A stretch of DNA of 64,000 bases from a virus (IMGVR_UViG_3300037461_000469:29752-93751), one strand, 5' to 3'. Numbered from the stretch's first letter, positions 2,573-47,358 are shown. The notes: generated by a model not told the origin, from the sequence alone. Numbers and translations: made by a program.

Positions 2573-2838
2573 TTGTAAAGAACTTCCTTCTTGAAAGAGG
2601 CCTTCAAGTACTTGACTGTCTGCACGATAAAAACACCTGATACAGCGGCAAGAGCAACGATAATCAGAAGCCTTTTGGTAACTTCAGGAAAAGAATGTAG
2701 AGTGCCGTTGATGAAGCCGATGGATGAGCCGATGAAAAAGATGCGGCCTACGTGTTTCAGGTAGGACATATCTTTCATTCCCTGCGTAGTGTTACGCTTG
2801 ATTTTCCAAATCCGATATCGCCTGATTAATTCGTTCAT
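2569..2838 (-). CDS. small membrane protein
   Basis: ORF with a hydrophobic segment; coupled to the downstream gene. Confidence 0.45.
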   Translation of the reverse strand: MNELIRRYRIWKIKRNTTQGMKDMSYLKHVGRIFFIGSSIGFINGTLHSFPEVTKRLLIIVALAAVSGVFIVQTVKYLKASFKKEVLYK

Positions 2839-32667: not shown

Positions 32668-33450
32668 TTATTTCATTTCAGCAGTAGCCTGTATCACACA
32701 ATTATTAAGAAACTCTCTATCTTGGGTAAAAGTAGGAGCGTGTGCAGTTGCCCATTTGCTACGGCTTACATCATTGATAAGGGTGTGAACTTTGATAATC
32801 ATTCTACCCCTCTTGTACTTGGGGGCGTAGTCGTTCCAATTCTGCCCCTTCTGAAAAATCATTTCCTGAAGTTCTGTCGTGTTCTTGCCGTTCATTTCCT
32901 TGTGCGAGTAGAGAGATTGTGCAACCGAAAGGATACTGTTGCGAACACAGTCCTGTTGTCTCCAAATGAAGTAGTTTTGTACCTCGTCCCACTCAGGGAT
33001 TTGAAATACCCTGCTGTCGAACTCACCCCACTTCATGTTACGAGTGCAGGACTCAATTGTGTGTGGGCCTTCCTCGTAAGCAAACCTTTTCAGCCTAGCC
33101 TCATTGAATGCCCTCGTTGCCATACTTGCCGACACGCTTGCCATCTTCTGAATGTTGTTGTCGAACCAAGCATCCGTTGTGAGTTTGTCGAAGTCCATGA
33201 GAAGAATAGAAATCTCATCGGACTGCACGTAGGCGAACTTGGCTCCCTGAATGTTCTTGCAGAGGTCGGCCGCAGTTGCGTCCATGTCCTCAATAAATCC
33301 ATCATCGAACGGACGAGTCAGCCCACGCGTGTACGTGTGGAAAGCCTTCCCGTCAATTCGGATAATGGTGTGCGTTCTACGGGGCAGACAAATTCGTGTT
33401 CTGTCCTCGTAGTTCGATTTCATCCTATTTCCGATGTCATCTTTCTTCAT
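32668..33450 (-). CDS. Thg1-like protein (tRNA-His guanylyltransferase family 3'-5' polymerase)
   Basis: IIRIDGKAFH...AYVQSDEISILL and WRQQDC motifs match the Thg1/TLP family; the gene sits between two tRNA-Leu genes. Confidence 0.7.
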   Translation of the reverse strand: MKKDDIGNRMKSNYEDRTRICLPRRTHTIIRIDGKAFHTYTRGLTRPFDDGFIEDMDATAADLCKNIQGAKFAYVQSDEISILLMDFDKLTTDAWFDNNIQKMASVSASMATRAFNEARLKRFAYEEGPHTIESCTRNMKWGEFDSRVFQIPEWDEVQNYFIWRQQDCVRNSILSVAQSLYSHKEMNGKNTTELQEMIFQKGQNWNDYAPKYKRGRMIIKVHTLINDVSRSKWATAHAPTFTQDREFLNNCVIQATAEMK

Positions 33451-33585: not shown

Positions 33586-33663
33586 GAACTCTCGACTAGT
33601 GCGTTCACAGCGCACCGCCTTTGGCCTCTAGGCGACATCCACCATAAAAGTTAAAAATTGGGT
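33586..33663 (-). tRNA. tRNA-His(GTG) with genomically encoded G-1
   Basis: AC loop CTGTGAA; extra 5' G pairing with C73; CCA encoded. Confidence 0.75.
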
Positions 33664-33677
33664 GAGCGGGACTTGCA

Positions 33678-33749
33678 CCCGCAACTCGTAGTTTCCGATA
33701 CTACGCGTCTTCTATTGACTTACCACCCACTACAATTCAATGGTTGGGA
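33678..33749 (-). tRNA. tRNA-Pro(CGG), non-canonical subfamily (U1:A72, D-loop AATAGAA, T-loop TGCAAGT)
   Basis: AC stem GTAGT/ACTAC with loop ATCGGAA; T-stem GCGGG/CCCGC. Confidence 0.5.
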
Positions 33750-33760
33750 ATGGGAGATTC

Positions 33761-33836
33761 GAACTCCCAAATTCTTGCGTCCAAGGCAAGCGACTTAACC
33801 GTTAGTCTAATTCCCAATACAGCCGTTGATGGTACT
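33761..33836 (-). tRNA. tRNA-Pro(TGG) (U1:A72)
   Basis: AC CTTGC-CTTGGAC-GCAAG; T-loop TTCGAAT; CCA encoded. Confidence 0.7.
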
Positions 33837-33839
33837 GCC

Positions 33840-33910
33840 CCACCGCCTCACGGTTCAGAGCCGTGTGTAATGCTATTTTACTAAACGGCTAAAAGCACCC
33901 CTGAGAGGAA
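33840..33910 (-). tRNA. tRNA-Gln(CTG), compact non-canonical subfamily (T-loop GGCAGTA)
   Basis: AGCCGTT|TA|GTAA-AATAGCA-TTAC|A|CACGG-CTCTGAA-CCGTG|AGGC|GGTGG-GGCAGTA-CCATC|AACGGCT. Confidence 0.5.
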
Positions 33911-33915
33911 TTGAA

Positions 33916-33987
33916 CCTCTACTGTAGGTTTAGGAAACCTGTGCGCTATCCGTTACACCACAGGGGCTTAAAAACGACAGGTCATAC
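33916..33987 (-). tRNA. tRNA-Arg(CCT) (G1:U72, no CCA)
   Basis: AC CAGGT-TTCCTAA-ACCTA, T-loop TTCAATT. Confidence 0.65.
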
Positions 33988-33992
33988 GACAA

Positions 33993-34108
33993 GGTGAGAA
34001 CACTTCGGGTGCGACCCGACCATCGTAAAGTCTTTAAACTAACCACGTGAACTCGCATCTCACCATTAGGGGAAATTGCGTGTCTAGTTCCACGCCGCTG
34101 TCGTTAAA
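33993..34108 (-). ncRNA. structured RNA element S1 (tRNA-like 5' domain plus expanded body; unknown function)
   Basis: Termini AACGACAG / CTGTCGTT are complementary; the internal conserved block CCACGCCGCTG is shared with S2 and S3. Confidence 0.45.
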
Positions 34109-34116
34109 TAGTGCAG

Positions 34117-34186
34117 GGCTGCTCCGATTCGAACAGAGATAAATGGGTTCAAAGCCCATCACCCTAACCATTGGGTTACAGCCCTA
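34117..34186 (-). tRNA. tRNA-Gln(TTG) (A1:U72)
   Basis: D-stem ACCC/GGGT, AC ATGGG-CTTTGAA-CCCAT, T-loop TTCGAAT; short variable loop. Confidence 0.6.
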
Positions 34187-34190
34187 TACG

Positions 34191-34262
34191 CATCCCCGAA
34201 GGGAATTGAACCCCTACTAAGGGTTTAGAAGACCCTTGCGCTATCCGTTACACCACGGGGAC
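34191..34262 (-). tRNA. tRNA-Arg(TCT)
   Basis: AC AGGGT-CTTCTAA-ACCCT; paralog of the Arg(CCT) gene. Confidence 0.7.
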
Positions 34263-34300
34263 ATAAAATTGCTTGTAGAAGAAGGGAGCCTTTCGGCCCC

Positions 34301-34645
34301 CTATTCAACACCTAGAACGTTTTTCAGCCTTGCCTTGTTGATGAATAAACTGTAGTCGTGCCAATTTGCGAAAATGGTTGCTTCCTCTAACATCACCGCT
34401 TCCACCTCTCCGTCTGATAACCCTCTGTCTTCCCATTCATCGCAACCACTACAACTCCCGTAGGAGTAGTTGTAACTGAACACCCGGCCGTCCCCCAACA
34501 ATACGTCTACGTCTACGTGGCCTTGGTAGTCATCCTCGTAGTCTGCCCTCAACAATTTCATGGCTCCCAGTTTGTCCAACACACTTTGCAAGTTGTCTGC
34601 GTAACGTCCCATGTGGCTTACTTCTACTTTGTTTTGTTCTGACAT
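34301..34645 (-). CDS. hypothetical acidic protein
   Basis: ORF within the tRNA island. Confidence 0.45.
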   Translation of the reverse strand: MSEQNKVEVSHMGRYADNLQSVLDKLGAMKLLRADYEDDYQGHVDVDVLLGDGRVFSYNYSYGSCSGCDEWEDRGLSDGEVEAVMLEEATIFANWHDYSLFINKARLKNVLGVE

Positions 34646-34705
34646 TTTGCACCTCCAAATGCCTTAGTGATGCTTCTTCGTATCAGAACATTAAAATTGC
34701 TAAAT

Positions 34706-34793
34706 TGGCGATGGGTGAAGGAGTTGAACCTCCGCTACTGTTACGTAGGCTTCGGTTTAGCAAACCGACACATTACCGCTCTGTCAACCCACC
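34706..34793 (-). tRNA. tRNA-Ser(GCT), type II
   Basis: AC TCGGT-TTGCTAA-ACCGA; long variable arm; CCA encoded. Confidence 0.7.
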
Positions 34794-35120
34794 CTATTTT
34801 TTCTTAGTCCACACGAACCCTAAAAGCAAACGATGTATTTTCCTATGAAACCAATTGGGAATTTTTCCATTCGGGGGTTCAACAGTTATACAACCACCAA
34901 ATAAAGAACAATGCCAATCCCCTGGCGAAGTGGTTACTGTATAAATGGGCATATAAGGGGAGTTCAAGATTTTTTCATCAGAGGACTTGGTAAAATGACA
35001 CCCCTTACAACAATCAAAAACTTCTTGGTTAGAAAAATGAATATCATATTCGGGACAACTTGAATGTAAAATATTTTTCAATTTTGTTTTTTTAGTAAGA
35101 GGACACTTTTTACTAATCAT
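34794..35120 (-). CDS. MIPKxCPL paralog family member 5
   Basis: MISKKCPLTKKTKLKNILHSSC N-terminus; its stop abuts the 5' end of tRNA-Ser. Confidence 0.5.
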   Translation of the reverse strand: MISKKCPLTKKTKLKNILHSSCPEYDIHFSNQEVFDCCKGCHFTKSSDEKILNSPYMPIYTVTTSPGDWHCSLFGGCITVEPPNGKIPNWFHRKIHRLLLGFVWTKKK

Positions 35121-35158
35121 TTATTATCCTGTTTATATTATATCATATTTTGTTTTTT

Positions 35159-35241
35159 CGGAAAGAGCAAGATTCGAACTTGCGGGTCTTTCGACCTTCC
35201 GCTTTCCAAGCGGATGCAATAGACCGCTCTGCCATCTCTCC
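35159..35241 (-). tRNA. tRNA-Ser(GGA), type II
   Basis: AC TCCGC-TTGGAAA-GCGGA; T-arm GCAAG-TTCGAAT-CTTGC. Confidence 0.7.
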
Positions 35242-35244
35242 ATT

Positions 35245-35339
35245 TGGCGGGAAGAAAGGGATTCGAACCCCTGAAGGATGGTATTAGCACCCTTGTCTGC
35301 TTTCAAGGCAGATGCATTAAACCGCTCTGCCATCTTCCC
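35245..35339 (-). tRNA. tRNA-Ser(TGA), type II with very long variable arm
   Basis: AC TCTGC-CTTGAAA-GCAGA; CCA encoded. Confidence 0.65.
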
Positions 35340-35349
35340 GTAATAAAAA

Positions 35350-35420
35350 TGCCCAATGATGGTTACGCTCCACCGCCTCGTCTTTGTAGGAGACATATTC
35401 TACTATTAAACTAATCGGGC
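35350..35420 (-). tRNA. tRNA-Val(TAC), compact non-canonical subfamily (C33; T-loop AGCGTAA)
   Basis: GCCCGAT|TA|GTTT-AATAGTA-GAAT|A|TGTCT-CCTACAA-AGACG|AGGC|GGTGG-AGCGTAA-CCATC|ATTGGGC. Confidence 0.45.
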
Positions 35421-35427
35421 ATACAAG

Positions 35428-35499
35428 TACCCCCCAAGGGAATCGAACCCCTGTCTCCTCGTTCGTAGCAAGGTGTTCTATCCGTTGAACTAGGAGGGC
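35428..35499 (-). tRNA. tRNA-Arg(ACG)
   Basis: AC CCTTG-CTACGAA-CGAGG; G1:U72; T-loop TTCGATT. Confidence 0.7.
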
Positions 35500-36147
35500 T
35501 TATTTTTCGTAAAACATAGGACTAGGATAATGATGCAACATGAACTGATTCTGCACAGTCGAATGTGTCGGATAGTTGTAGCATATATGGGGGTTGATAC
35601 AATACACGTTCATTCCCTTTTGTAAGTCCCTGAGTAATGCATCGAACGGGGCAGGGAACCTGTCATACATAACGATAATTCTGTCGTAAATTCTCTTGTT
35701 GATGATTACGCCGTGTACGCCGAAAGCGGATATTACTTTGTACACGTTCTTACAGATTCGTACAGGCCTGTAGCCGTCTTGGTCTGTATGCGCACCCGCA
35801 AGATACAACATATCCCAATCCTTCGGAACTGCTTCTAGAAAGCCTTCCAAATGCTCGTTGAAATCATCCACGAGAATCAAATCATCTTCAAACAAGGCAA
35901 CTGCTCTAGAGTGATAATACTTGCGTATAATTCGCTTGTATGATTCCAAACACCCGAAGGCATTTAGGCCGTGGCGGGTGATGTCTTCGGCGGGATACAT
36001 ATGTTCTACGTCTTTCCCCGCAATTGCGGGAAAAAGTTCAGCCGTGATTCCCAACTTGTTAAATTGGATGTTCATATGATTTGTCTTGAACTCGTTTAGG
36101 CTGAGTAGAACAACGTTATCAACGATTGTGTGTAAAATGCTTTTCAT
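35500..36147 (-). CDS. glycosyltransferase family 25-like protein
   Basis: N-terminus VLLSLNEFKTNHMNIQFNKLGITAELFPAIAGKD resembles the GT25 start. Confidence 0.45.
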   Translation of the reverse strand: MKSILHTIVDNVVLLSLNEFKTNHMNIQFNKLGITAELFPAIAGKDVEHMYPAEDITRHGLNAFGCLESYKRIIRKYYHSRAVALFEDDLILVDDFNEHLEGFLEAVPKDWDMLYLAGAHTDQDGYRPVRICKNVYKVISAFGVHGVIINKRIYDRIIVMYDRFPAPFDALLRDLQKGMNVYCINPHICYNYPTHSTVQNQFMLHHYPSPMFYEK

Positions 36148-36176
36148 TCTTGCTCCCCTATTATTTAGGGGAAAAG

Positions 36177-36247
36177 TGGGTCTAGAGGGAATCGAACCCC
36201 CATCTTCAGGTTAAAGGCCTGCTCGTCTACCGTTGACATATAAACCC
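36177..36247 (-). tRNA. tRNA-Lys(TTT)-like with C32-C33 anticodon loop (CCTTTAA)
   Basis: Canonical D and T arms; AC stem CAGG/CCTG with a 27:43 mismatch. Confidence 0.5.
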
Positions 36248-36254
36248 ATAAAAG

Positions 36255-36325
36255 TGAAGCCGGAGGGAATCGAACCCACATAGATTGATTAAGAGTCAAC
36301 TATTCTTCCGTTGAATTACGGCTCC
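36255..36325 (-). tRNA. tRNA-Lys(CTT)
   Basis: AC GTTGA-CTCTTAA-TCAAT. Confidence 0.65.
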
Positions 36326-36329
36326 ATAA

Positions 36330-36480
36330 AACCGACAGGTTGAAATTTATATTTCAACTTTCCTACTTTTCCATCGTATCTTTACCTTCTAGATTAGGTG
36401 TAGGAATCGTCTATCTGTCTAGTATTCCTCTAGAAAACACGCAAACGATAGTGTGTACTCTATCCACACCGCTGTCGGTT
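36330..36480 (-). ncRNA. structured RNA element S2 (paralog of S1)
   Basis: Termini ACCGACAG / CTGTCGGT are complementary; conserved internal block; internal 8-bp hairpin GTTGAAAT/ATTTCAAC. Confidence 0.45.
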
Positions 36481-36494
36481 AAAATTGCAAAAAA

Positions 36495-36568
36495 TGGTGA
36501 GGCCGAGAAGAATCGAACTTCTATAGATTGATTAAAAGTCAACTATTCTGCCGTTGAATTACGACCCC
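36495..36568 (-). tRNA. tRNA-Lys(TTT)
   Basis: AC GTTGA-CTTTTAA-TCAAT; CCA encoded. Confidence 0.7.
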
Positions 36569-36575
36569 ACAAAAC

Positions 36576-36657
36576 TGCCTAGGGTGGGATTTGAACCCAC
36601 ATGAGCCGAAGCCCAACGGATTTTAAGTCCGCACGGTATACATTCCACCACCTAGGC
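36576..36657 (-). tRNA. tRNA-Leu(TAA), type II
   Basis: Acceptor GCCTAGG/CCTAGGC; AC GCGGA-CTTAAAA-TCCGT. Confidence 0.7.
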
Positions 36658-36670
36658 GTAATAATTCAAA

Positions 36671-36746
36671 TGGTGGCAAGGGGAGGAATCGAACCTCCAT
36701 TTCCCGCTCTTCAGGCGGGTGCTATGACCACGTAAGCGACCTTGCC
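36671..36746 (-). tRNA. tRNA-Phe(GAA)
   Basis: AC CCCGC-CTGAAGA-GCGGG; CCA encoded. Confidence 0.75.
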
Positions 36747-36748
36747 TT

Positions 36749-36834
36749 TGGTGTTGCTGAAAGGCATCGAACCTTCACCCCTTACGGGACAGGACTCTCA
36801 TTCCTGCGTGTCTACCAAGTTACACCACAGCAAC
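36749..36834 (-). tRNA. tRNA-Leu(GAG), type II
   Basis: AC CAGGA-ATGAGAG-TCCTG; CCA encoded. Confidence 0.65.
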
Positions 36835-36842
36835 ATAAAAAA

Positions 36843-36921
36843 TGGCGGGGGCGAAGAGATTCGAACTCCTAACTCACAGGGGTTAACGGCCCCCGGTTCT
36901 ACCGATTAGAACTACACCCCC
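36843..36921 (-). tRNA. tRNA-Asn(GTT) with C33 (loop CCGTTAA)
   Basis: AC GGGGG-CCGTTAA-CCCCT; CCA encoded; 7-nt variable region. Confidence 0.6.
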
Positions 36922-37176
36922 ACTCTAACATCATGCATATTGATGATGATTATTCTTCGTAAAAGTCCGAAGTCAAAATAAATTTCAAATCTGCGATTGT
37001 TTTTAGCAAAGGTCAAATGGGAGCCTAATTCAATACAGCCGTCAAAAGCCTTTGCCCAAGTAAAGTAAATTTTTTTGTGTCTAAAAAGTCTAAACTCTTT
37101 CTCCACTAAAAAAGGACTTCTGTTGTACTCACAATCATGTTCATCTTCTTTTTTCATTTTTACCTCTTGTTAATTT

Positions 37177-37250
37177 TGGAGCGGGTAGAGGTAGTCGAAA
37201 CCTCATCCTTTGGTTGGAAGCCAAATATTCTACCGTTGAACTACACCCGC
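37177..37250 (-). tRNA. tRNA-Gly(TCC) (U73)
   Basis: AC TTTGG-CTTCCAA-CCAAA; T-loop TTCGACT; CCA encoded. Confidence 0.75.
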
Positions 37251-37310
37251 AAGCGGACGAAAATATTAGAAATTTGAAATTCGAATTTCACAAAAACACT
37301 AAATATATGT

Positions 37311-37931
37311 ATGGGATTAATAAAAGGACATTGTAGCCATTGTGGAAAAAATTTTTCAAAAAAAGGGTCTATTGAAAACTATAACCGATGGAAAACTCAT
37401 TTTTGTTCGAAAGACTGTCAAGATAAATATAAAATGACAAAAATAAAAGTGATTTGTAAAAACTGCAATAAAGAATTTGAAAAACAACTGAAACGAATAG
37501 TAACTAATAATTTCTGTTCTTCTTCTTGTGCCGCTATTTATAATAACACTCACAAAACAAAAGGAACCCGAACATCAAAGTTAGAGGTTTGGCTTCAGGA
37601 ACAACTACGAACTCTGTATCCAAAAGAAGAAATTCTTTTCAACGATAAGACCGCTATTAACTCAGAGTTGGATATTTACTTCCCTCGTCTAAAATTAGCC
37701 TTTGAATTGAACGGTATTTTTCATTACGAACCAATTTACGGGAAAGAAAAACTTGAACAAATTCAAAACAACGACCAAAGAAAATTTCTTCTTTGTCAAC
37801 AAAAAGGAATCTCGCTTTGCGTGATTGATGCTTCGAAAGAAAATTATTTCAAAGAAGAACGAAGCAAAAAATATTTAGATATTGTTATTGATATTTTTCA
37901 AAAGGCGGCGAAGGGAGTCGCACCCATTTAG
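37311..37931 (+). CDS. putative homing endonuclease, Zn-ribbon + Vsr-like (DUF559/PD-(D/E)xK) nuclease domain, paralog 1
   Basis: N-terminal CxxC pairs; C-terminal LDIYFPRLKLAFELNGIFHY matches the Vsr core D-I-x-F-P..KLA...G.F.H; AT-rich; the 3' end overlaps tRNA-Cys. Confidence 0.5.
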   Translation: MGLIKGHCSHCGKNFSKKGSIENYNRWKTHFCSKDCQDKYKMTKIKVICKNCNKEFEKQLKRIVTNNFCSSSCAAIYNNTHKTKGTRTSKLEVWLQEQLRTLYPKEEILFNDKTAINSELDIYFPRLKLAFELNGIFHYEPIYGKEKLEQIQNNDQRKFLLCQQKGISLCVIDASKENYFKEERSKKYLDIVIDIFQKAAKGVAPI

Positions 37932-37973
37932 ACGGTTTTGCAGACCGCTGCCTAACTGTTCGGCCACGCCGTC
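37903..37973 (-). tRNA. tRNA-Cys(GCA)-like, non-canonical T-loop TGCGACT
   Basis: AC GCGGT-CTGCAAA-ACCGT; acceptor has one A:C mismatch; overlaps the 3' end of Vsr-like paralog 1. Confidence 0.4.
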
Positions 37974-37978
37974 CTACA

Positions 37979-38061
37979 CGGAGAGAGCAAGATTCGAACT
38001 TGCGCCCCTTTCGGGGAACGGCTTTCGAAACCGCCACGATAGACCACTCTGACATCTCTCC
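37979..38061 (-). tRNA. tRNA-Ser(CGA), type II
   Basis: AC GCGGT-TTCGAAA-GCCGT; paralog of the Ser(GGA) gene. Confidence 0.7.
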
Positions 38062-38065
38062 ACAA

Positions 38066-38136
38066 AGCGGATTATCGGCTCTGCCCCGATACTCCAACGT
38101 TGGCAACGTTGGGTGCTACTATTACACCAAACCCGC
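38066..38136 (-). tRNA. tRNA-Gly(GCC), compact non-canonical subfamily (U73; T-loop GGCAGAG)
   Basis: GCGGGTT|TG|GTGT-AATAGTA-GCAC|C|CAACG-TTGCCAA-CGTTG|GAGT|ATCGG-GGCAGAG-CCGAT|AATCCGC. Confidence 0.5.
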
Positions 38137-38145
38137 AGAAATTCG

Positions 38146-38217
38146 CACCCCTACTAGGATTCGAACCCAGTCTCAATCGTTCGAAGCGATTGTTGCTTTC
38201 CATTACATCATAGGGGC
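38146..38217 (-). tRNA. tRNA-Arg(TCG)
   Basis: AC AATCG-CTTCGAA-CGATT; G1:U72. Confidence 0.65.
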
Positions 38218-38222
38218 ATAAT

Positions 38223-38376
38223 ACCGCTAGGCGGGGCTTGATTCCCGCTGACCGTTATCTAGCCATTGTAGTTTAACCGTATCACTTGCCACCCTGGTCT
38301 TTCGGGCTACGGGTTCTGTCCAATTGAGGACATAGGCGTTCGCTACAATGCGGTGTCCTTCCACGCCGCTAGCGGT
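38223..38376 (-). ncRNA. structured RNA element S3 (paralog of S1/S2)
   Basis: Termini ACCGCTAG / CTAGCGGT pair; the two changed positions on one strand are matched by the complementary changes on the other (covariation relative to S1/S2); T-arm-like hairpin GCGGG...CCCGC next to the 3' strand. Confidence 0.45.
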
Positions 38377-38455
38377 TATCAGAAAGGACAACGCAAAGCG
38401 ATGTCCCAACTCTTTCTACACTTGATTACCACGGTAGATGAGATAGATGAAATTA

Positions 38456-38529
38456 TGGAGCCGCTGAATGGAATTGCACCAATATTTCTTGTTTACCGAA
38501 CAAGCGGTCTGCTATTGAACTACAGCGGC
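38456..38529 (-). tRNA. tRNA-Thr(GGT), non-canonical subfamily (D-loop AATAGCA, T-loop TGCAATT, C33)
   Basis: AC CTTGT-TCGGTAA-ACAAG; CCA encoded. Confidence 0.5.
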
Positions 38530-38701
38530 ATTTACGTAATGAAGCGTTGGATGCTACGATATGAAAACGGTTCAAAGCCACCTGACGAGAACGATTCGCC
38601 AAAACCCGCTTACGAAACGGGTATTTTGCCAATTAAATTAAGGTGGCATAAAAAAGAGCCATAAAAGAGATTCGAAAATGAGATTTTCACTAAATAGTAG
38701 T

Positions 38702-39364
38702 ATGAGTATAGAAAAAGATATTTTGTATTGTAATTATTGTCATAAAAAACTTGAAAGGGTTTGGGTGCGATATGGAAAAAGAGCAACCCAAAATCACTAT
38801 TGCTCTGCTGACTGTTTACATCAATTTAGAAATAAAGCACAATTAGTTTCTTGTAAAAATTGCGGAAAAGAATTTATGAAAAGATTAGACCAAATTAAAA
38901 AATTCCCTAATAATTTTTGTTCCCAATCTTGCGCCGCCATTTATAATAATGCTCACAAAACAAAAGGAACCCGAACTTCAAAACTTGAAGTTTGGTTACA
39001 GGGGCGATTACGAACCCTTTACCCTAACGAAGAAATTCTTTTCAACGATAAAACTGCTATCAACTCCGAATTAGATATTTACTTTCCTCGTTTGAAGTTG
39101 GCTTTTGAGTTGAATGGTATCTTCCATTACGAACCTATATACGGAAAAGAAAAACTTACACAAATTCAAAACAACGACCAAAGAAAGTTTTTACTTTGCC
39201 ATCAAAAAGGAATTTCGCTTTGTGTAATTGACACATCGAAACAGAAATACTTTAAAAAAGAACAAAGTGAAAAATATTTAAAAATCATAACAGATATAAT
39301 TCAGCCGCCGGAGGAAATTGCATCCCCAACATCCGCATTACAGGTGCGGCACTCTGCTAATTGA
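38702..39364 (+). CDS. Vsr-like homing endonuclease paralog 2
   Basis: About 75% identical to paralog 1 over the nuclease domain; start set at the MSIEKDILYC shared with paralog 3; C-terminal read-through into the tRNA-Thr gene. Confidence 0.5.
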   Translation: MSIEKDILYCNYCHKKLERVWVRYGKRATQNHYCSADCLHQFRNKAQLVSCKNCGKEFMKRLDQIKKFPNNFCSQSCAAIYNNAHKTKGTRTSKLEVWLQGRLRTLYPNEEILFNDKTAINSELDIYFPRLKLAFELNGIFHYEPIYGKEKLTQIQNNDQRKFLLCHQKGISLCVIDTSKQKYFKKEQSEKYLKIITDIIQPPEEIASPTSALQVRHSAN

Positions 39365-39375
39365 GTTACGGCGGC
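39303..39375 (-). tRNA. tRNA-Thr(TGT), non-canonical subfamily (T-loop TGCAATT, C33)
   Basis: Acceptor GCCGCCG/CGGCGGC; AC CCGCA-CCTGTAA-TGCGG; overlaps the 3' end of Vsr-like paralog 2. Confidence 0.5.
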
Positions 39376-39403
39376 ATCAAATATATTTAATTTAAAACCG
39401 AAA

Positions 39404-39476
39404 AATTTCTACGGGGAGTCGAACCCCGATTTTCTGGTTGCAGGCCAGATGTACGCCCGTTATACTATAGCCCCAT
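39404..39476 (-). tRNA. tRNA-Ala(TGC)-like with mismatched 5' acceptor strand (possible 5'-editing substrate or pseudogene)
   Basis: Canonical D, AC (TCTGG-CCTGCAA-CCAGA) and T arms, but 5' GGGGCTA against 3' TAGAAAT leaves G:A mismatches at positions 2-4. Confidence 0.35.
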
Positions 39477-39577
39477 AATAAAGGGTATGGTATTAAAGAA
39501 ATATTGCAAAATAACAGAGAGGGGAAATAATTCAAAACCTTATCTTGTCTAGAATGATAAGATTCTTTTTCTTTCAC

Positions 39578-39653
39578 GTGTGCCGTTGGGATTTGAACCC
39601 AAGCCTCCCGCCTTCTGCGGCGGGTGTGCTATCCAGCCTACACCATTAGCACA
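39578..39653 (-). tRNA. tRNA of undetermined specificity (palindromic anticodon arm CCCGCC-GCAGAA-GGCGGG)
   Basis: Canonical D-loop AGGCTGGATA and T-loop TTCAAAT; anticodon loop is 6 or 8 nt long, not 7. Confidence 0.4.
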
Positions 39654-39681
39654 ACTCCTCTCCGAACTTATAAGTTCAATG

Positions 39682-39753
39682 TTGTCGTGGGTGGGGTCGA
39701 ACCACCATTGAGCGATTATAAGTCGCCTCGCCTGCCAATTGGCGGACACGACA
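39682..39753 (-). tRNA. tRNA-Ile(TAT) (U1:A72)
   Basis: AC GGCGA-CTTATAA-TCGCT; T-loop TTCGACC. Confidence 0.65.
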
Positions 39754-39759
39754 ATATTC

Positions 39760-39799
39760 AAAATAAAATTAAATACTGCGGGGCGGGTGGTCCCGCCCC
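39760..39799 (-). terminator. intrinsic terminator (minus-strand direction)
   Basis: 8-bp GC stem GGGGCGGG/CCCGCCCC followed, in the minus sense, by a U-rich tract. Confidence 0.5.
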
Positions 39800-40387
39800 A
39801 AAAAGTTATAATGGATGACCGCCGACAGAGACTTGACGCATGAAGGCGGTACTTAGGCAGATGTAGGCTCGTATGATTGGCCCACTTCGCCTTAACCTAA
39901 GTCAATCTTGGTGCGGGGCTATTGGTAACACCGTGGTCAAACAGCATTACCAACAGCCTGACCTTCCGCACACTTTCCAAACACTCTAATTTGAACCTAC
40001 AGAAATCCACGAATGTCGCACCACCAACGAATTTCTGACGATTCTCTTTTACCATAATTACTGACCGCTAATGGAATTGTTCCGAATCTCTGTGCGATTG
40101 AGAATGGTTCCGCTAACTGTATTAAAAGCACCACCCCTGTCCCATCATAATCCAAAATCTAAATGATTTCGCAGGGTGGCTGACTTAAAATCGAATCTTA
40201 CTCAGGGGCTAACAGGTTCCACGACAACCCGTTGCCTCTGAGTTCCGTCTAATCTTTTTAATTTTAATTATGTCCGCTGACCTAAATCTCAGGCCTTGGT
40301 CGTGGAAAGGTCAAAGATTTATTTCTGCCAACGGATTCAAAGGTGGTGTCCTTATAAGGGACAACCTTCCAACCTAAGAACAAAATG

Positions 40388-40472
40388 TGCCGCGGGGTAG
40401 AATTGCACTACCAACGCCTTGCGGCGAACGGTTTTACAGACCGCTAGGCTCACTACGCTGCCCAACCACGGC
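40388..40472 (-). tRNA. tRNA-Tyr(GTA), type II, T-loop TGCAATT
   Basis: AC GCGGT-CTGTAAA-ACCGT; variable arm hairpin CGCC-GCAA-GGCG. Confidence 0.55.
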
Positions 40473-40478
40473 ATAAAG

Positions 40479-40549
40479 TCCCCAATGACGGTACTGCCCC
40501 GCCGTCTGACGATTATCGGTCGCCGGTTCTGCTATTGAACTAAATGGGG
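40479..40549 (-). tRNA. tRNA-Ile(GAT), compact non-canonical subfamily (C33; T-loop GGCAGTA)
   Basis: CCCCATT|TA|GTTC-AATAGCA-GAAC|C|GGCGA-CCGATAA-TCGTC|AGAC|GGCGG-GGCAGTA-CCGTC|ATTGGGG. Confidence 0.45.
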
Positions 40550-40612
40550 ATGTATTGCTGACGGGGATTGAAAATTTTATTCCGATTTCTTTCAAAAACA
40601 CTAAATAATAGT

Positions 40613-41224
40613 ATGAGTATTAGCAAAGAAATTTTGTATTGTGATTATTGCCACAAAAACTTCAATGGATGGGTTCGTAATAAAAATAGGGAAAAAGAAA
40701 AACACTACTGTTCCCGATATTGTTATCGTCAAGCCAAAATCACAAAACAAACCGTTTCCTGTAAAAATTGCGGAAAAGAATTTGAAAAAACATTAGGTGA
40801 AATTAAAAAATATTCAAATCATTTTTGTTCTCACTCTTGTCGTGCCATTTATCAAAACACCCACAAAACAAAAGGAACCCGAATATCGAAGTTGGAAATT
40901 TGGCTTCGGGAACAATTACGAACTCTTTACCCTGACGAAGAAATTCTTTTCAACGATAAAACCACCATCAACTCTGAATTGGATATTTATTTTCCAAACC
41001 GCAAATTGGCCTTCGAACTAAATGGAATTTTCCATTACGAACCAATTTACGGAAAAGAAAAACTTACACAAATTCAAAACAATGACCAACGTAAGTTTTT
41101 ACTTTGCCAACAAAAAAATATTTCTCTTTGTGTGATTGATGCTTCAAAAGAAAATTACTTTAAAGAAGAACGAAGTAAAAAATATTTGAATATTATTATC
41201 AATATTATTAATAATCAAAAGTAG
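40613..41224 (+). CDS. Vsr-like homing endonuclease paralog 3
   Basis: Same domain layout; its stop overlaps the 3' end of tRNA-Glu. Confidence 0.5.
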   Translation: MSISKEILYCDYCHKNFNGWVRNKNREKEKHYCSRYCYRQAKITKQTVSCKNCGKEFEKTLGEIKKYSNHFCSHSCRAIYQNTHKTKGTRISKLEIWLREQLRTLYPDEEILFNDKTTINSELDIYFPNRKLAFELNGIFHYEPIYGKEKLTQIQNNDQRKFLLCQQKNISLCVIDASKENYFKEERSKKYLNIIINIINNQK

Positions 41225-41293
41225 CCCTGCGGGTAATCGAAACCCGACCTAAAGATTGAGGGTCTTTCATCCTGACCGTTAGACGACAGGGCC
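41222..41293 (-). tRNA. tRNA-Glu(CTC) with C33 (loop CCCTCAA)
   Basis: AC AAAGA-CCCTCAA-TCTTT; T-loop TTCGATT. Confidence 0.6.
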
Positions 41294-41319
41294 AATTACT
41301 CTACAGTAACAAAAAATCT

Positions 41320-41390
41320 CCACCCTGTGATACTCAGGGATTGGCGGCAGATACGCCGCTGTCCTATTATGTTAGACGATGGAGAAAATA
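41320..41390 (-). pseudogene. degenerate tRNA-like element
   Basis: Has an acceptor-like stem and T-like hairpin CCCTG-AGTATCA-CAGGG, but the anticodon hairpin has a 6-nt loop. Confidence 0.25.
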
Positions 41391-41394
41391 TTTC

Positions 41395-41469
41395 TTGGTA
41401 GCCCCACGGAGAATTGAACTCCGACTCCGAGATTGAAAATCTCGTGTCCTGACCATTAGACGATGGAGC
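41395..41469 (-). tRNA. tRNA-Glu(TTC)
   Basis: AC CGAGA-TTTTCAA-TCTCG; T-loop TTCAATT; CCA encoded. Confidence 0.75.
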
Positions 41470-41481
41470 CATAAAATTGCT

Positions 41482-41557
41482 TTGGTCGCAGAGGAAAGAT
41501 TCGAACTTTCGGCTACAAGTTTATGAAACTCGTTCCTTAGCCACTAGGATACTCTGC
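41482..41557 (-). tRNA. tRNA-Met(CAT), elongator (or Ile2)
   Basis: Acceptor CGCAGAG/CTCTGCG fully paired; AC CGAGT-TTCATAA-ACTTG. Confidence 0.7.
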
Positions 41558-41562
41558 GAAAA

Positions 41563-41638
41563 ATGGTAGCGGGTCAGGGAATCGAACCCTGCTCAGGGGT
41601 GGTTATGAGCCACCTGAAACACCTTGCCTCCCACCCGC
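41563..41638 (-). tRNA. tRNA-Met(CAT), initiator-like (1:72 mismatch, A11:U24)
   Basis: U1:U72 mismatch; D-stem GAGG/TTTC gives A11:U24; AC GGTGG-CTCATAA-CCACC. Confidence 0.55.
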
Positions 41639-42281
41639 AATAAAAATACAAATGGAATAACCTTTGGTTACTTGATTTACATAAATCTAAACTTTCCACT
41701 TATCACTAAAAATGGTGATGAGTGGAAATAATAAAATATTTCACGCCGCAAGCAAGGCCACATCCAAGTACTCGTTGCCGAAATACAAAAATGGGGGCAA
41801 CCCCTGCTCCACGGCACTATTGCTAACCTCTTGTGGTTTTTTGAGTATAGGAACTAGGATACGACTTCCGAGTACCACTCCCCACGGCTCACCACTAACC
41901 TCAATAAAAATCTTTCTGACCGCCGAATTTCACGGGATACTTTGGGTCATACTAGATTTAAAATTGCTACTTCTTTTTTTACATCTTGGTGAAAAAGAAT
42001 ACGAAGAAAAAACACCATCTTATAAAAGTGCTAGAAGTCAGCCACCACTACGGAAGAGCGTTTTATACACGTCTGCGAACTGCCTTTAAACTTCAGCCGC
42101 CATTCGTCAATGGCGAACTCGTAGATACAGGGACGATATGCCCTGCGGTGGCTGACTTCAAAATTGCAAGAGTCGAACTAGCCCTCTACGGCGTGAACGC
42201 TGAACCCGCACGTCTGCAAGGCTACTCGTAGAGTGGAATGACGGCTCTCTGCCGTTGGCTAATCCGACTCATAAAAAAGCA

Positions 42282-42357
42282 TGGCGGGACCGACGGGTAC
42301 TGCCCCCGCATATTCCACGCTGACAACGTGGCGCGCCTACTTGTGTGCCACGGCCCC
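42282..42357 (-). tRNA. tRNA-Asp(GTC), non-canonical T-loop GGCAGTA (G73, CCA encoded)
   Basis: AC CCACG-TTGTCAG-CGTGG; acceptor GGGGCCG/CGGTCCC. Confidence 0.5.
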
Positions 42358-42519
42358 ATTAATTAAAAGGATATAATATTGCTTACAAAAACAAAAAGAA
42401 AGAAGCGGGGTTCCCCTCGCCGATTCGAAAATCGTCAAGAGGAACGCCCACTTCAAAAAGCCACAAAACCAAAAATGTCAAACACCCTAAGACTCATAGC
42501 CTACGAGTCAATACAACCC

Positions 42520-42548
42520 ATTATAACACAGGTTGTTGTATCTGTCAA
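42520..42548 (-). promoter_or_regulatory. sigma70-type promoter, TTGACA-N17-TGtgtTATAAT, directed into the non-coding region and tRNA-Asp
   Basis: Perfect consensus hexamers with 17-nt spacer. Confidence 0.65.
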
Positions 42549-42686: not shown

Positions 42687-42715
42687 ATTATATCACACCA
42701 CGTAACGTTTGTCAA
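42687..42715 (-). promoter_or_regulatory. sigma70-type promoter, TTGACA-N17-TGtgaTATAAT, driving tRNA-Pro and the tRNA island
   Basis: Consensus hexamers about 18 nt upstream of the 5' end of tRNA-Pro. Confidence 0.7.
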
Positions 42716-45471: not shown

Positions 45472-45972
45472 TTATGAGGGAATTGTTTGTACCTCATCGA
45501 ACTGTTTATCAATGTTTTGCAATCCGTTTTTAAACTGAGTGAGTTGTCGTGCGATTACTTCTTTCGGTACTGCGCTTCTGTCTTTGCCACTTGTTAAATC
45601 ACCCTGCACTCTGCCGTAGAGTTTGTCCACGATTTCCTCGTCTGTGCCTTGCGGCTGAAAGACGATGGCTACCTTGTGGACTCCTGCGGGAACGTTCTTC
45701 AGAAATTGGTTGCGTAGGGATGATTTGGTGTTGGTGGCATCCAAGACAGCCAAACCCATTTTATCAAGGTTGGCCTGTATTCTTTCTGCTGTTATTTTCC
45801 ACACCATAAAATCTCTGCTTTGGTCGCTGACCGAACCTGTGAGTTCCTTACGGATGGCATCAGGTTCCACGATTACTTCCCGTTCGAACACTTTGTCGAG
45901 AATGGTGGATTTGCCTGAACCACTAAGGCCGATTGCCATATAAAACGTAGGATGCATCACTTTAAATCTCAT
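45472..45972 (-). CDS. P-loop kinase (polynucleotide kinase-like)
   Basis: Walker A GLSGSGKST; short kinase-domain length; sits among RNA-repair genes. Confidence 0.55.
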   Translation of the reverse strand: MRFKVMHPTFYMAIGLSGSGKSTILDKVFEREVIVEPDAIRKELTGSVSDQSRDFMVWKITAERIQANLDKMGLAVLDATNTKSSLRNQFLKNVPAGVHKVAIVFQPQGTDEEIVDKLYGRVQGDLTSGKDRSAVPKEVIARQLTQFKNGLQNIDKQFDEVQTIPS

Positions 45973-47358
45973 CTACTTCTTATTTATTTCCTTTTCAATA
46001 CGCTTCCAATTATTTTGCGCCCAACGTTTCAGGAACTCCTTCTTGTTCTTCTCAGGGTTCATTATTACTAAATCAAGTAACCCTTTTAAAACTTTTCCTA
46101 TTATAATACCTGGCGGAATTCCAATTGATATTAAATCATCGCCATTAATAGCCAAATGAGAGATTTCATAGGGTTCTTTCTTGGCTAGGATATCGTCAAT
46201 CTGTGCGGCTCTAGACCCGTACTTCTCCATCCCCGCCTCAATCTTCTCAGGCTTATGCGCCCTGATATCTGCTAGCCGCATCGCCTTCCAATCTTCCAAG
46301 TAGTCTACGCCCAAGTTTCTGATGAAGTGCTTGATTTTGTTGCGCTTCTCAGGTTCGGCTTGGTGCAGGAAAATCAACCTGACGATTTTCGTGATTGCTT
46401 CGTTTTTGAATTTCAAACGGCGCAGAATAGGCTCTGCCAACTCTGCCGAAATCTTGTCGTGTCCGATGAACCTATCTCGTCCCGTTTCATCCCTGACCCT
46501 AGCCTTCTCCTTGCCGATATCGTGGAGCAGGGTTGCCCAACGAACGTCTAGACGTGCGGGCGCGCCGTCAATCACGTCCATCGTGTGTCCGAAGACGTTC
46601 TTGTGATGCCACGGGCTTTGCTGTGGAACGCTGTCGAGAACATCTACTTCGGGCAGAATGATTTTGAGCAGTCCAAGGTCGTGAAGCATTTGGATTCCTA
46701 CAGACGGCTTTGGGGTCAACAGGATTCCGTCAAGTTCGTCCTTGATTCTTTCAGACGAAACGTAGCGTAATCTTTCGGCGTTGCGTTTGATTGCCTTTTC
46801 CGTGTCAGTATCTAGTTTAAACCCGTAGCGGCTTGCAAAGCGAACCACTCGCATCAATCTGAGTGCGTCCTCGTGGAAGCGTTCTTCAGGACGGCCTACT
46901 GCTTTCAACGTGCCGCTTTCCAAATCTTCCTGACCGCCAAAGGGGTCAACAAGTTCACCTGTCAGCGGGTCGAAGGCCATTGAATTGATTGTCAAGTCCC
47001 TACGAGCCAAATCTTCCTTGATGTCTTTGGAGAACGATACGGCTTTCGGCCTACGGGCATCGGAGTAGTCTGCCTCTAGCCTGTAGGTGGTGATTTCAAA
47101 CTCTTCATCGTCTACGATAGCCGCCCACGTTCCATATTCTGCCCCCTTGTCGTAATTTTTTATCCCTGCATCAGTTAGAATTTTTTCTGTTTCTTTCGGA
47201 AGGGCATCAGTTGTGAAGTCCCAATCCTTCGGCTGTCTACCTAGCATGATGTCCCTGACACAACCACCTACAAGGTAGGCTTCGTGTCCTGCGTCATTAA
47301 AGAGTTGTGCAATTTCAAGGGCTTGCGGCGGGATGTCTCCAAAGTTTTTAAATTCCAT
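45973..47358 (-). CDS. cca: CCA-adding tRNA nucleotidyltransferase with HD domain
   Basis: AYLVGGCVRDIMLG...DWDF and RDLTINSMA motifs of class II tRNA nucleotidyltransferases; HD motif HTMDV...LLHDIGK. Confidence 0.8.
   Translation of the reverse strand: MEFKNFGDIPPQALEIAQLFNDAGHEAYLVGGCVRDIMLGRQPKDWDFTTDALPKETEKILTDAGIKNYDKGAEYGTWAAIVDDEEFEITTYRLEADYSDARRPKAVSFSKDIKEDLARRDLTINSMAFDPLTGELVDPFGGQEDLESGTLKAVGRPEERFHEDALRLMRVVRFASRYGFKLDTDTEKAIKRNAERLRYVSSERIKDELDGILLTPKPSVGIQMLHDLGLLKIILPEVDVLDSVPQQSPWHHKNVFGHTMDVIDGAPARLDVRWATLLHDIGKEKARVRDETGRDRFIGHDKISAELAEPILRRLKFKNEAITKIVRLIFLHQAEPEKRNKIKHFIRNLGVDYLEDWKAMRLADIRAHKPEKIEAGMEKYGSRAAQIDDILAKKEPYEISHLAINGDDLISIGIPPGIIIGKVLKGLLDLVIMNPEKNKKEFLKRWAQNNWKRIEKEINKK

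Follow-up and report, generated by a model that had tools for sequence, protein, structure and literature searches.

In a 64,000-nucleotide stretch of viral DNA (IMGVR_UViG_3300037461_000469:29752-93751), hereafter the window, we analysed a tRNA island that lies between 32.5 and 42.7 kb on the minus strand and belongs to a jumbo phage. Ten of its genes very probably encode working elongator tRNAs in which the elbow, where the D- and T-loops meet, has been rebuilt in a coordinated manner, with A18 and G55 in place of G18 and U55. Few nucleotides in biology are as conserved as G18, T54 and Ψ55, which are treated as invariant outside organelles and a few special tRNAs. The reading is drawn from sequence comparison, in which the two loops co-vary, the stems are maintained by selection, and the same design recurs in many phages and is rare in cellular genomes. 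It agrees with a first-pass annotation of this DNA, which had proposed that the tRNAs are functional and that their D- and T-loops changed together; compensatory changes in the stems, covariation of positions 18 and 55, and recovery of all ten loci by a covariance model named R1 point the same way. The variant tRNAs are probably aminoacylated and used in translation.

Ten tRNA genes with a variant elbow

Loop sequence was ignored in our own scan of the window, which required stems of 7, 4, 5 and 5 bp in tRNA geometry. All ten loci were recovered with 0-3 mismatches per 21 pairs (0 or 1 in eight loci, two in tRNA-Thr(GGT) and three in tRNA-Cys), and there were almost no matches elsewhere in the 64 kb. 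ARAGORN called 35 genes in the island. The Rfam family RF00005 at its gathering score (curated threshold, 29 bits) also gave 35, in a partly different set, and a sensitive Rfam pass gained tRNA-Gln(CTG). From the stem-only scan and the calls of these tools together, the island consists of about 40 tRNA genes, about 30 of them canonical and ten, about one quarter of the total, variant, plus two or three defective tRNA-like elements. The ten cloverleaves listed in the first-pass annotation all exist on the minus strand, but two of the starts given there (33678 and 33840) were 20 nt off; the revised spans are shown in Table 1.

The D-loop contains A18-G19 in all ten genes; G19, C56, R57 and G55 are present in 10/10, and G18 and U55 in 0/10. 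The D-loop AATAG(C/T)A without a G18-G19 pair, as first described, was correct in part: G18 is lost from every gene, but G19 is kept, and even the wider form AATAG[ACT]A fits only six of the ten. The T-loops were as listed before (GGCAGTA and TGCAATT in three genes each, GGCAGAG, AGCGTAA and TGCAAGT in one each), with TGCGACT of tRNA-Cys to be added. The replacement of U55 by G and the frequent lack of a T54-A58 pair were likewise confirmed, the U54/A58 couple being kept in 5/10. The T-loop is always 7 nt long, the D-loops of the class I members have 7-8 nt, and G53:C61 and purine 57 are retained. Two other supposed peculiarities did not hold. The TA at positions 8-9 occurs in 6/10 variants and is equally common among the canonical tRNAs, and the statement that there is no extra loop fails for tRNA-Tyr, which has a 15-nt variable arm of the normal bacterial type.

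The anticodon loop is an intact 7 nt in all ten genes, with R37 in 10/10 and U33 in 7/10. The identity rules of E. coli tRNAs were used as the yardstick for the identity elements. By these rules, we found U73 in tRNA-Gly and tRNA-Cys, G73 in tRNA-Asp, A73 in tRNA-Val, tRNA-Ile and tRNA-Tyr, the long arm of tRNA-Tyr, and A1:U72 with G73 in tRNA-Gln; those for Gly, Asp and Gln (A1:U72) had been correctly noticed in the first-pass annotation. It had also stated that the anticodons are mostly missing from the canonical set, and this is the case for all ten. The tRNAs of the island were said to complete a set of 20 amino acids, but only 19 are reached, because the window has no intact tRNA-Ala.

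Detection by standard tools and by a model of the variant class

ARAGORN detected 5/10 of the variant genes, and RF00005 detected 6/10 at the gathering score and 7/10 in the sensitive mode, with scores of 41.9-55.3 bits. No RF00005 match at E<=10 was obtained for tRNA-Tyr, tRNA-Ile(GAT) and tRNA-Asp, and tRNA-Ile(GAT) and tRNA-Asp(GTC) were missed by both tools. The best-scoring canonical tRNAs of the island reached 55-67 bits, as compared with 41-55 bits or none for the variants. The prediction that standard finders would under-call these genes was therefore right. The covariance model R1 was built on an alignment (A3) of 39 variant tRNAs from other contigs only, with the window excluded. R1 recovered 10/10 of the loci at 16.7-77.1 bits (E 1e-3 to 8e-23), among them the two that had escaped both standard tools. 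Folding of the single sequences discriminated poorly and is weak evidence: the minimum-energy fold coincides with the cloverleaf in about 6/10 genes, and the z-scores range from +0.5 to -2.9.

Conservation of stems and switching of class among related phages

Relatives were collected by using the Thg1-like protein of the island as an anchor, which gave 62 IMG/VR loci. The closest three, L001, L002 and L003, are 84, 82 and 74% identical, respectively, and the variant class is present in the syntenic tRNA arrays of all three. L002 and L003 are located on jumbo-phage contigs of 223 and 239 kb, and L001 on a contig of 43 kb. No usable match was obtained in 50,697 GenBank phages by megablast of the island or by blastn of single variant tRNAs. 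The large terminase subunit shares about 25% identity with its counterparts in T4-like phages.

Across 17 groups of syntenic orthologues from the window and L001-L003, 151 stem positions showed compensatory change on both sides, 24 had changed on one side and were still paired, 12 included an unpaired member, and 174 were invariant. The stems of the variant tRNAs are under purifying selection. A comparison with related phages had been proposed as a check in the first-pass annotation, and the stems drawn there are indeed conserved through compensatory changes. Eight compensatory pair positions were found for tRNA-Pro(CGG) in its orthologues in L001, L002 and L003, eight each for tRNA-Gln(CTG) and tRNA-Tyr against L002 and L003, and six in the orthologues of tRNA-Gly(GCC). 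tRNA-Asp has an identical copy in L002 (2038-2109), and the stems of tRNA-Cys are identical in L002 (5584-5653), including A2.C71, with one difference in the D-loop.

Individual genes were found in one class in the window and in the other class in a relative. tRNA-Val(TAC) has the loops AATAGTA and AGCGTAA in the window and AACGGTA and TTCGATT in L001 (1325-1394), on identical acceptor and T stems; the switch comprises C16T, G18A, T54A, T55G, A58T, T59A and T60A. tRNA-Thr(TGT) has AATTAGCA and TGCAATT in the window and AATTGGCA and TTCGATG in L002 (4585-4656), with the same acceptor stem and variable region. tRNA-Thr(GGT), a variant in the window, is canonical (AATGGCA and TTCGATT) in L003 (3497-3566), and its anticodon arm is identical. 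Including Ile-TAT, Arg-TCG and Ser-GCT, six isoacceptors go from one class to the other while their backbone is conserved, always with a joint change of positions 18 and 55, and further class differences between genomes were observed for Gly-TCC, Glu-TTC, Glu-CTC, His and Cys. The variants are therefore not a subfamily, the term of the first-pass annotation, in the sense of a gene lineage, but a structural state that individual syntenic genes enter and leave. Some T-arm cassettes are common to different isoacceptors, namely GGTGG-GGCAGTA-CCAYC in Gln, Ile and Thr, and GGTGG-AGCGTWA-CCATC in Val and Ile.

An encoded CCA end is present in tRNA-Thr(GGT) and tRNA-Asp(GTC) and lacking in 8/10 of the window variants. 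In the window and L001-L003, CCA is encoded by 33/64 canonical and 6/32 variant tRNAs. The lack of CCA was considered as a trait of the class, and it is true of this clade, but most of the variants found more widely in IMG/VR end in CCA. Xanthomonas phage XacN1, the closest cultured phage by its Thg1 (52% identity), was tried as a model and discarded, because the T-loops found in its tRNA region were all canonical. In the same phage (L248, AP018399.1 39053-46067), several tRNAs that are normally of class I (Gly, Thr, Cys and Asn) have long variable arms of 14-17 nt, a non-canonical form of another kind. Thg1-like 3'-5' polymerases repair 5' mismatches in the tRNAs of protist mitochondria, and editing of the variant 5' ends by the phage enzyme was also considered. 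It was rejected, as positions 1-3 show no excess of acceptor mismatches, A2.C71 of tRNA-Cys being the only one there.

Covariation of D-loop with T-loop, and distribution of the variant class

A local survey was performed on both strands of the window and the 62 loci, and cloverleaves with at most one mismatch and at least nine G-C pairs were retained. The combination at positions 18-19 and 55-56 was GG/TC in 136 tRNAs and AG/GC in 35, and the mixed combinations GG/GC and AG/TC occurred zero times and once, respectively. The association has a Fisher p value of 9e-36 when kinship is ignored. Since orthologues with the same conserved backbone can differ in class, phylogeny does not explain the covariation. 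G55, C56, R57 and A18-G19 are invariant in 35/35 variant tRNAs. The couple at positions 54/58 of these 35 is T/A in 13, G/G in 13, A/T in seven, and A/A and C/C in one each, and it is never mixed. The D/T contact appears to be re-paired rather than lost, with G19:C56 invariant and positions 54 and 58 co-varying. tRNA-Thr(CGT) of the island is a half-variant, having the canonical G18G19 and U55C56 together with A54/T58, and its orthologues in L002 and L003 are full variants (AATCAG[CT]A with AGCATAA). The 54/58 couple thus changes independently of 18/55.

The test was extended to the whole of IMG/VR with patterns blind to the stems, and the matches were checked afterwards for their fit to a cloverleaf. 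The pattern combining A18 and G55 (AATAGYA...GGGCAGTAC) gave 101 matches, including 29 true tRNAs. That combining G18 and G55 (AATGGYA...GGGCAGTAC) gave 56 matches and no true tRNA, and A18 with the commonest canonical T-loop (AATAGYA...GTTCGAATC) gave 89 matches, two of which were true tRNAs. The mismatch counts of the A18 and G55 matches are bimodal, 0-2 versus 6-17. Such bimodal distributions were used in place of a reversed-sequence control, which was uninformative because reversed tRNAs still pair. The 29 variants stem from many samples, represent many isoacceptors and mostly end in CCA; the contigs that carry them number about 27 and measure 6-446 kb.

A stricter pattern was applied to 596 Gb of bacterial and archaeal genomes and gave 12 true cloverleaves. 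Two of these 12 matches are on contigs that are also in IMG/VR, and most of the others belong to closely packed, phage-like tRNA arrays of metagenome-assembled contigs, as in one case with 14 tRNAs in 3 kb. With database sizes calibrated from chance matches, the density of variants is about 0.4 per Gb in IMG/VR versus about 0.02 per Gb in cellular genomes, and they are thus about 20 times more frequent in viral sequence.

Other forms of the elbow were observed in distant clades. There, a D-loop AGTTGAAA is combined with the T-loop TTTGAGC, with A19:U56 in place of G19:C56. Carriers of A19:U56 (D-loop ...TTGA.., T-loop TTTGAGY) were found in Thg1-encoding phages, at L017 2464 and 3220, L040 13386, L043 12601, L055 13439, L058 12612, L060 11010 and L061 12598. 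tRNA-Pro(TGG) of the sister contigs L036, L042 and L044 has A18-G19 with the T-loop GGCGGGA instead.

Proposed structure of the variant elbow

The standard loop sizes, the invariant G19:C56 and the strict covariation of 18 and 55 indicate that the interaction of the D- and T-loops is kept. In the proposed elbow, A18 would replace G18 as the base that intercalates from the D-loop, so that the inner layers would be re-coded from UUCRA with G18 to NGCRN with A18. The outer G19:C56 platform would be retained for the ribosome, RNase P and other partners, which make use of this exposed platform in canonical tRNAs (PMC4810234). The loss of G18 and U55 is no argument against tRNA function, because the changes co-vary.

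The variant T-loops resemble those of other RNAs. The T-loop consensus of riboswitches is UGNRA or CGNRA with an intercalating adenosine, in the terminal-loop receptors of the FMN and cobalamin (Cbl) riboswitches the base inserted between positions 4 and 5 is nearly always adenosine, and an rRNA T-loop GGAAG, which the variant GGCAG resembles, exists (bioRxiv 10.1101/2022.12.26.521914). In the J1/3 loop of a cobalamin riboswitch, A-G-C-R-U superimposes on the tRNA T-loop at 0.55 A; its G2 enforces the turn, its C3 forms a pair with a G far away, and C-A, C-C, U-U and A-A are tolerated as the closing pair (PMC6158498). UGCAA, UGCGA, AGCGU (AGCAU) and GGCAG of the variants are of the same five-nucleotide types as these loops, and they share with them G2, a distant G as the partner of position 3, a purine at position 4, an adenosine intercalator and a variable closing pair. 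The phage motif differs in being located in the T-arm of a tRNA and docking with a D-loop, and the likeness is one of sequence. Because the variant T-loops fall within this known sequence space, the fold has probably been kept despite the change in sequence, and by analogy we infer that the elbow, including the geometry of A18.G55, is equivalent to the canonical one in three dimensions.

As compared with canonical RF00005 tRNAs, such as those of the T4 and T5 clusters, the variants have the same 7/4/5/5 stems and 7-nt anticodon loop, share U8, A14, G19:C56, R57 and G53:C61, and conform to the standard in their identity elements, and they differ in G18 to A, U55 to G, and a 54/58 couple that is often not U/A. 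The island also resembles the T4 and T5 clusters in its company of homing endonucleases, RNA ligases and a CCA-adding enzyme. Type II tRNAs of metazoan mitochondria and tRNA-Pyl are likewise without the G18G19 and TΨC consensus, but in them the D/T contact is lost or idiosyncratic and the loop sizes vary (PMC7609411). Neither A18/G55 tRNAs nor phage T-loop variants were found to be described in the literature searched, which included a review of non-canonical tRNAs and the study of anticodon-loop evasion by phage tRNAs; its coverage was incomplete, so that this absence is not proof. The A18/G55 elbow is an alternative design of the tRNA corner, the T-loop types themselves being already known.

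Alternative explanations and possible reasons for the variant elbow

Several observations weigh against working tRNAs with a rebuilt elbow. tRNA-Cys has the stem mismatches A2.C71 and U50.U64, and its minimum-energy fold is not the cloverleaf (z +0.5); the same discrepancy, with modest z-scores, applies to tRNA-Gln(CTG), tRNA-Val and tRNA-Thr(GGT). The near-universal U33 is replaced by C in tRNA-Ile(GAT), tRNA-Val(TAC) and tRNA-Thr(TGT), and the sequences used for R1 and for the pair counts had been pre-selected for their fit to a cloverleaf. The C33 in three of the ten, together with the low or absent scores in standard tools and the presence of truly defective elements in the same island (39404-39471 and 41315-41386), could suggest that the loci are pseudogenes in decay, or that they act outside translation as tRNA-like decoys, primers or processing signals. 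C33 occurs in both elbow classes, in 7/64 canonical and 4/32 variant tRNAs. Decay is difficult to reconcile with 151 compensatory stem positions versus 12 with an unpaired member, and with the fact that the 7-nt anticodon loops are intact, the identity elements preserved and the anticodons non-redundant. Without these genes, moreover, the 19 amino acids of the island would lack Asp, Tyr, Cys, Val and Thr. The same design is found on about 27 unrelated viral contigs and mostly encodes CCA. We regard these readings as very improbable, and the selection on the stems, the R1 scores and the identity elements exclude pseudogenes for practical purposes; the truly defective elements of the island have quite another appearance.

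As for why the rebuilt elbow was selected, the leading proposal, a tentative one which we would not call probable, is that it serves in phage counter-defence and cannot be cut by immune nucleases acting on the T-loop (Schlafen/Cash nucleases and contact-dependent inhibition (CDI) toxins). The UUC/TΨC word would have been deleted with the fold kept, and the nuclease site would be gone. TrmA is the m5U54 methyltransferase, TruB the Ψ55 synthase and TrmH the Gm18 methyltransferase of tRNA. A variant without UUC/TΨC should escape enzymes that read or cut this motif and should be independent of TrmA, TruB and TrmH. Codons for Asp, Tyr, Cys, Val, Thr, Ile, Gly, Gln and Pro could then still be translated by the phage once the host tRNAs had been destroyed, and the repeated switching between canonical and variant forms in sister phages would reflect an arms race. 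One such nuclease is CbCash, a CRISPR-associated prokaryotic Schlafen protein reported in July 2026, which cuts the T-loop 5' of U55 at UUC and whose cleavage is abolished by single mutations of U54 or U55; the targeting of phage tRNAs was left open (PMC13462974). Phage tRNAs that evade anticodon nucleases (PMC10264068) and the T5 tRNAs acting against PARIS and retron systems (PMC11464382) are similar in being phage-encoded and in differing from the host consensus at a site read by a defence nuclease; there, too, the phage has many tRNAs, and the present one has repair enzymes in addition. Unlike the anticodon-loop mutations of the evaders (PMC10264068), the change here is at elbow positions 18, 54, 55 and 58 and requires a compensating change in a second loop, and the nuclease is hypothetical. 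The tRNA and RNA repair genes of this phage, judged from their domains, fit a phage under tRNA-damaging defences. Only about a quarter of the island tRNAs are variants, so that a broad T-loop nuclease would be resisted only in part, which counts against this proposal.

Near-neutral compensatory drift between equivalent G18/U55 and A18/G55 states, in which constraint is relaxed (through a short life, high expression and no need of TrmA, TruB or TrmH) and the two sides are kept matched without any benefit, is another conceivable account that we likewise doubt more than we favour. The frequent switching of class in both directions among close relatives is expected from it, as is the presence of both classes in one operon-like island. 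The A19:U56 covariation of other clades suggests that the elbow sequence of phage tRNAs is loose, and in-vitro screens show a wide sequence space for T-loops. Each switch takes at least two coordinated changes, however, and usually 4-7, and the intermediate combinations gave 0 and 2 cloverleaves versus 29 in IMG/VR. This near-absence of intermediates implies a fitness valley that drift alone would rarely cross, and the roughly 20-fold lower frequency of the variant per base in cellular genomes is also against it.

Another possibility, a rather unlikely one, is that the elbow gives independence from modification and folding helpers, with loops of the UGNRA type folding as bare transcripts and allowing fast maturation during infection. 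G55 and A18 do remove the substrates of TruB and TrmH, the non-U54 of 5/10 removes that of TrmA, and the same loop types work unmodified in riboswitches. On the other hand, U54 is kept in the other 5/10, most tRNAs of the same phage are canonical, and unmodified transcripts of canonical tRNAs are generally functional in vitro. Selection at the level of DNA appears less likely still and is in our view improbable. The canonical T-arm GGTTCGAATCC, as the DNA word most conserved within a tRNA array, would be a target of homing endonucleases or recombination, the variants would be alleles immune to cleavage and spread or fixed through endonuclease-driven gene conversion, and the D-loop would compensate at the level of RNA. 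Three endonuclease-like genes of the island each adjoin a tRNA with a non-canonical T-loop, and the T-arm cassettes common to different isoacceptors are typical of patchy gene conversion. This adjacency is not significant (3-4/6 flanks against a base rate of 27%), and the variants are present on many contigs, while the association with endonucleases is known from this island alone.

Organization of the tRNA island and neighbouring genes

The features of the window are summarized in Table 1. Variant and canonical genes of the island are 3-15 nt apart, for example in the runs Gly-GCC/Ser-CGA/Cys and Ile-GAT/Tyr, and co-transcription is the simplest reading of this spacing. Two perfect matches to the sigma-70 promoter consensus were found at the head of the island. 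About 130 nt past the promoter at 42548-42520, a G+C hairpin with a T-run is located upstream of tRNA-Asp; the segment (42385-42548, minus strand) looks like a short independent transcription unit, and its promoter region is kept in L002 (about 1748-1900).

Table 1. Features of the window. Spans of the variant genes include the discriminator base and any encoded CCA. Scores are in bits, mismatches are per 21 cloverleaf pairs, and MFE denotes a cloverleaf that is the minimum-energy fold.
Feature	Position	Strand	D-loop	T-loop	Other properties	ARAGORN	RF00005	Mismatches	R1
tRNA-Pro(CGG)	33658-33729	-	AATAGAA	TGCAAGT (T54/A58)	no encoded CCA	yes	43.3	1	38.0
tRNA-Gln(CTG)	33820-33890	-	AATAGCA	GGCAGTA (G54/G58)	A1:U72, G73	no	46.1 (sensitive mode; missed with default filter)	0	77.1 (E 8e-23)
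tRNA-Val(TAC)	35350-35420	-	AATAGTA	AGCGTAA (A54/T58)	C33, A73	no	44.7	0	63.9
tRNA-Cys(GCA)	37903-37973	-	AACAGTT	TGCGACT	U73; weakest member	yes	44.5	3	35.2
tRNA-Gly(GCC)	38066-38136	-	AATAGTA	GGCAGAG (G54/G58)	U73; MFE, z -2.9	no	41.9	0	66.6
tRNA-Thr(GGT)	38456-38529	-	AATAGCA	TGCAATT	encoded CCA	yes	53.4	2	59.9
tRNA-Thr(TGT)	39303-39375	-	AATTAGCA	TGCAATT	C33; MFE	yes	55.3	0	44.6
tRNA-Tyr(GTA)	40388-40472	-	AGCGTAGTGA	TGCAATT	class II, 15-nt variable arm, A73; MFE	yes	none at E<=10	0	16.7 (long arm penalised)
tRNA-Ile(GAT)	40479-40549	-	AATAGCA	GGCAGTA	C33, A73; MFE	no	none at E<=10	1 (U6.U67)	74.4 (E 6e-22)
tRNA-Asp(GTC)	42282-42357	-	ACAAGTAG	GGCAGTA	G73, encoded CCA	no	none at E<=10	1 (A12.C23)	41.9 (E 1e-11)
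tRNA-Thr(CGT), half-variant	38576-38647	-	canonical G18G19	ATCGTTC (A54/T58, canonical U55C56)		yes	46.4	0	
Ala-like element	39404-39471	-		canonical	TGC in anticodon position, C33				
Glu-tRNA-derived element	41315-41386	-	AACATAATA (without G)	AGTATCA	between Glu-TTC and Glu-CTC; 7-bp acceptor; 6-nt anticodon loop GTATCT	no	none		26.7
Odd tRNA	39579-39653	-			8-nt anticodon loop (ARAGORN 'caga')		29.2		
Putative sigma-70 promoter	42687-42715	-			head of island; 12/12 consensus matches, TG extension; consensus match only				
Putative second sigma-70 promoter	42520-42548	-			perfect match, TG extension; consensus match only				
Thg1-like tRNA 3'-5' nucleotidyltransferase	32668-33450	-			within island; Pfam PF04446, E 2.6e-28				
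CCA-adding enzyme	45973-47358	-			Pfam PolyA_pol + PolyA_pol_RNAbd + tRNA_NucTran2_2 + HD				
tRNA/RNA repair and maturation kit	2835-3860, 10585-11535, 32668-33450, 45472-47358, 51097-52323	- (all)							
Three paralogous Cys-rich homing-endonuclease-like genes (phrog_559, 3339, 9084)	37311-37931, 38678-39364, 40568-41224	+							

The repair and maturation kit comprises the Thg1-like protein, the CCA-adding enzyme, RlaP, a ligase similar to T4 Rnl1, an RNA ligase with a PHA02142 OB domain, and an AAA_33 domain protein that may act as a kinase. A LAGLIDADG endonuclease adjoins the Rnl1-like ligase, and a radical SAM protein similar to lysine-2,3-aminomutase is encoded at 48932-50044 on the minus strand. 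The three homing-endonuclease-like open reading frames are antisense to the island and adjoin or overlap the ends of the genes for tRNA-Cys, tRNA-Thr(CGT) and tRNA-Thr(TGT), and tRNA-Ile(GAT). These endonucleases may drive a patchy exchange of tRNA arms among relatives.

Some tRNA-like elements of the island are defective or unusual. The 3' acceptor strand of the Ala-like element, TAGAAAT, is unable to pair with its 5' strand, GGGGCTA. The element is kept in L002 (4491-4552) with a compensatory change from U:A to A:U in the anticodon stem, and L003 (2143-2219) has an intact tRNA-Ala(TGC) with G3:U70 instead. C33 is found in this element and in one tRNA-Lys(TTT) (36177-36247) as well as in the variants, and it may be relevant to the evasion of anticodon nucleases. 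The Glu-tRNA-derived element is a pseudogene or a non-decoding tRNA-like RNA. The orthologue of the odd tRNA in L002 (4166-4241) has a 7-nt loop with the anticodon TCA, and a copy of tRNA-Arg(TCG) has mutated to TCA there (5339-5411). The tRNAs with TCA or with an 8-nt loop may be opal-suppressor or frameshift tRNAs in this group of phages.

An intergenic element is present between tRNAs in three copies (33968-34112, 36326-36494 and 38218-38458, minus strand). In all three, the 5' box is AAC(C)GnnAGCGG(C/T)GTGGA and the 3' box is CCTnnCG(G)T(T)TT. Their terminal helix co-varies, two copies having CGACAG...CTGTCG and the other CGCTAG...CTAGCG. No Rfam match was obtained for it at E<=10. The element may represent a family of small structured RNAs of the tRNA island.

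Implications

In dozens of phage tRNAs, elbow nucleotides are replaced in a manner that follows rules and is reversible. The orthologues of the two classes amount to a natural double-mutant cycle of the tRNA elbow, with isogenic pairs such as those of tRNA-Val(TAC). Because tRNA-Asp and tRNA-Ile(GAT) are invisible to both standard tools, the tRNA sets of phages are under-counted and analyses of codon coverage are biased. The variant tRNAs would be ready-made scaffolds, expected to be ignored by TrmA, TruB and TrmH and by nucleases specific for TΨC, with a possible use in orthogonal translation. Whether phages respond to T-loop cleavage with tRNAs of their own, a question raised by the study of CbCash (PMC13462974), becomes directly testable. 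If the counter-defence proposal were true, the rebuilt elbow would be the T-loop counterpart of the evasion in the anticodon loop by T5-like phages.

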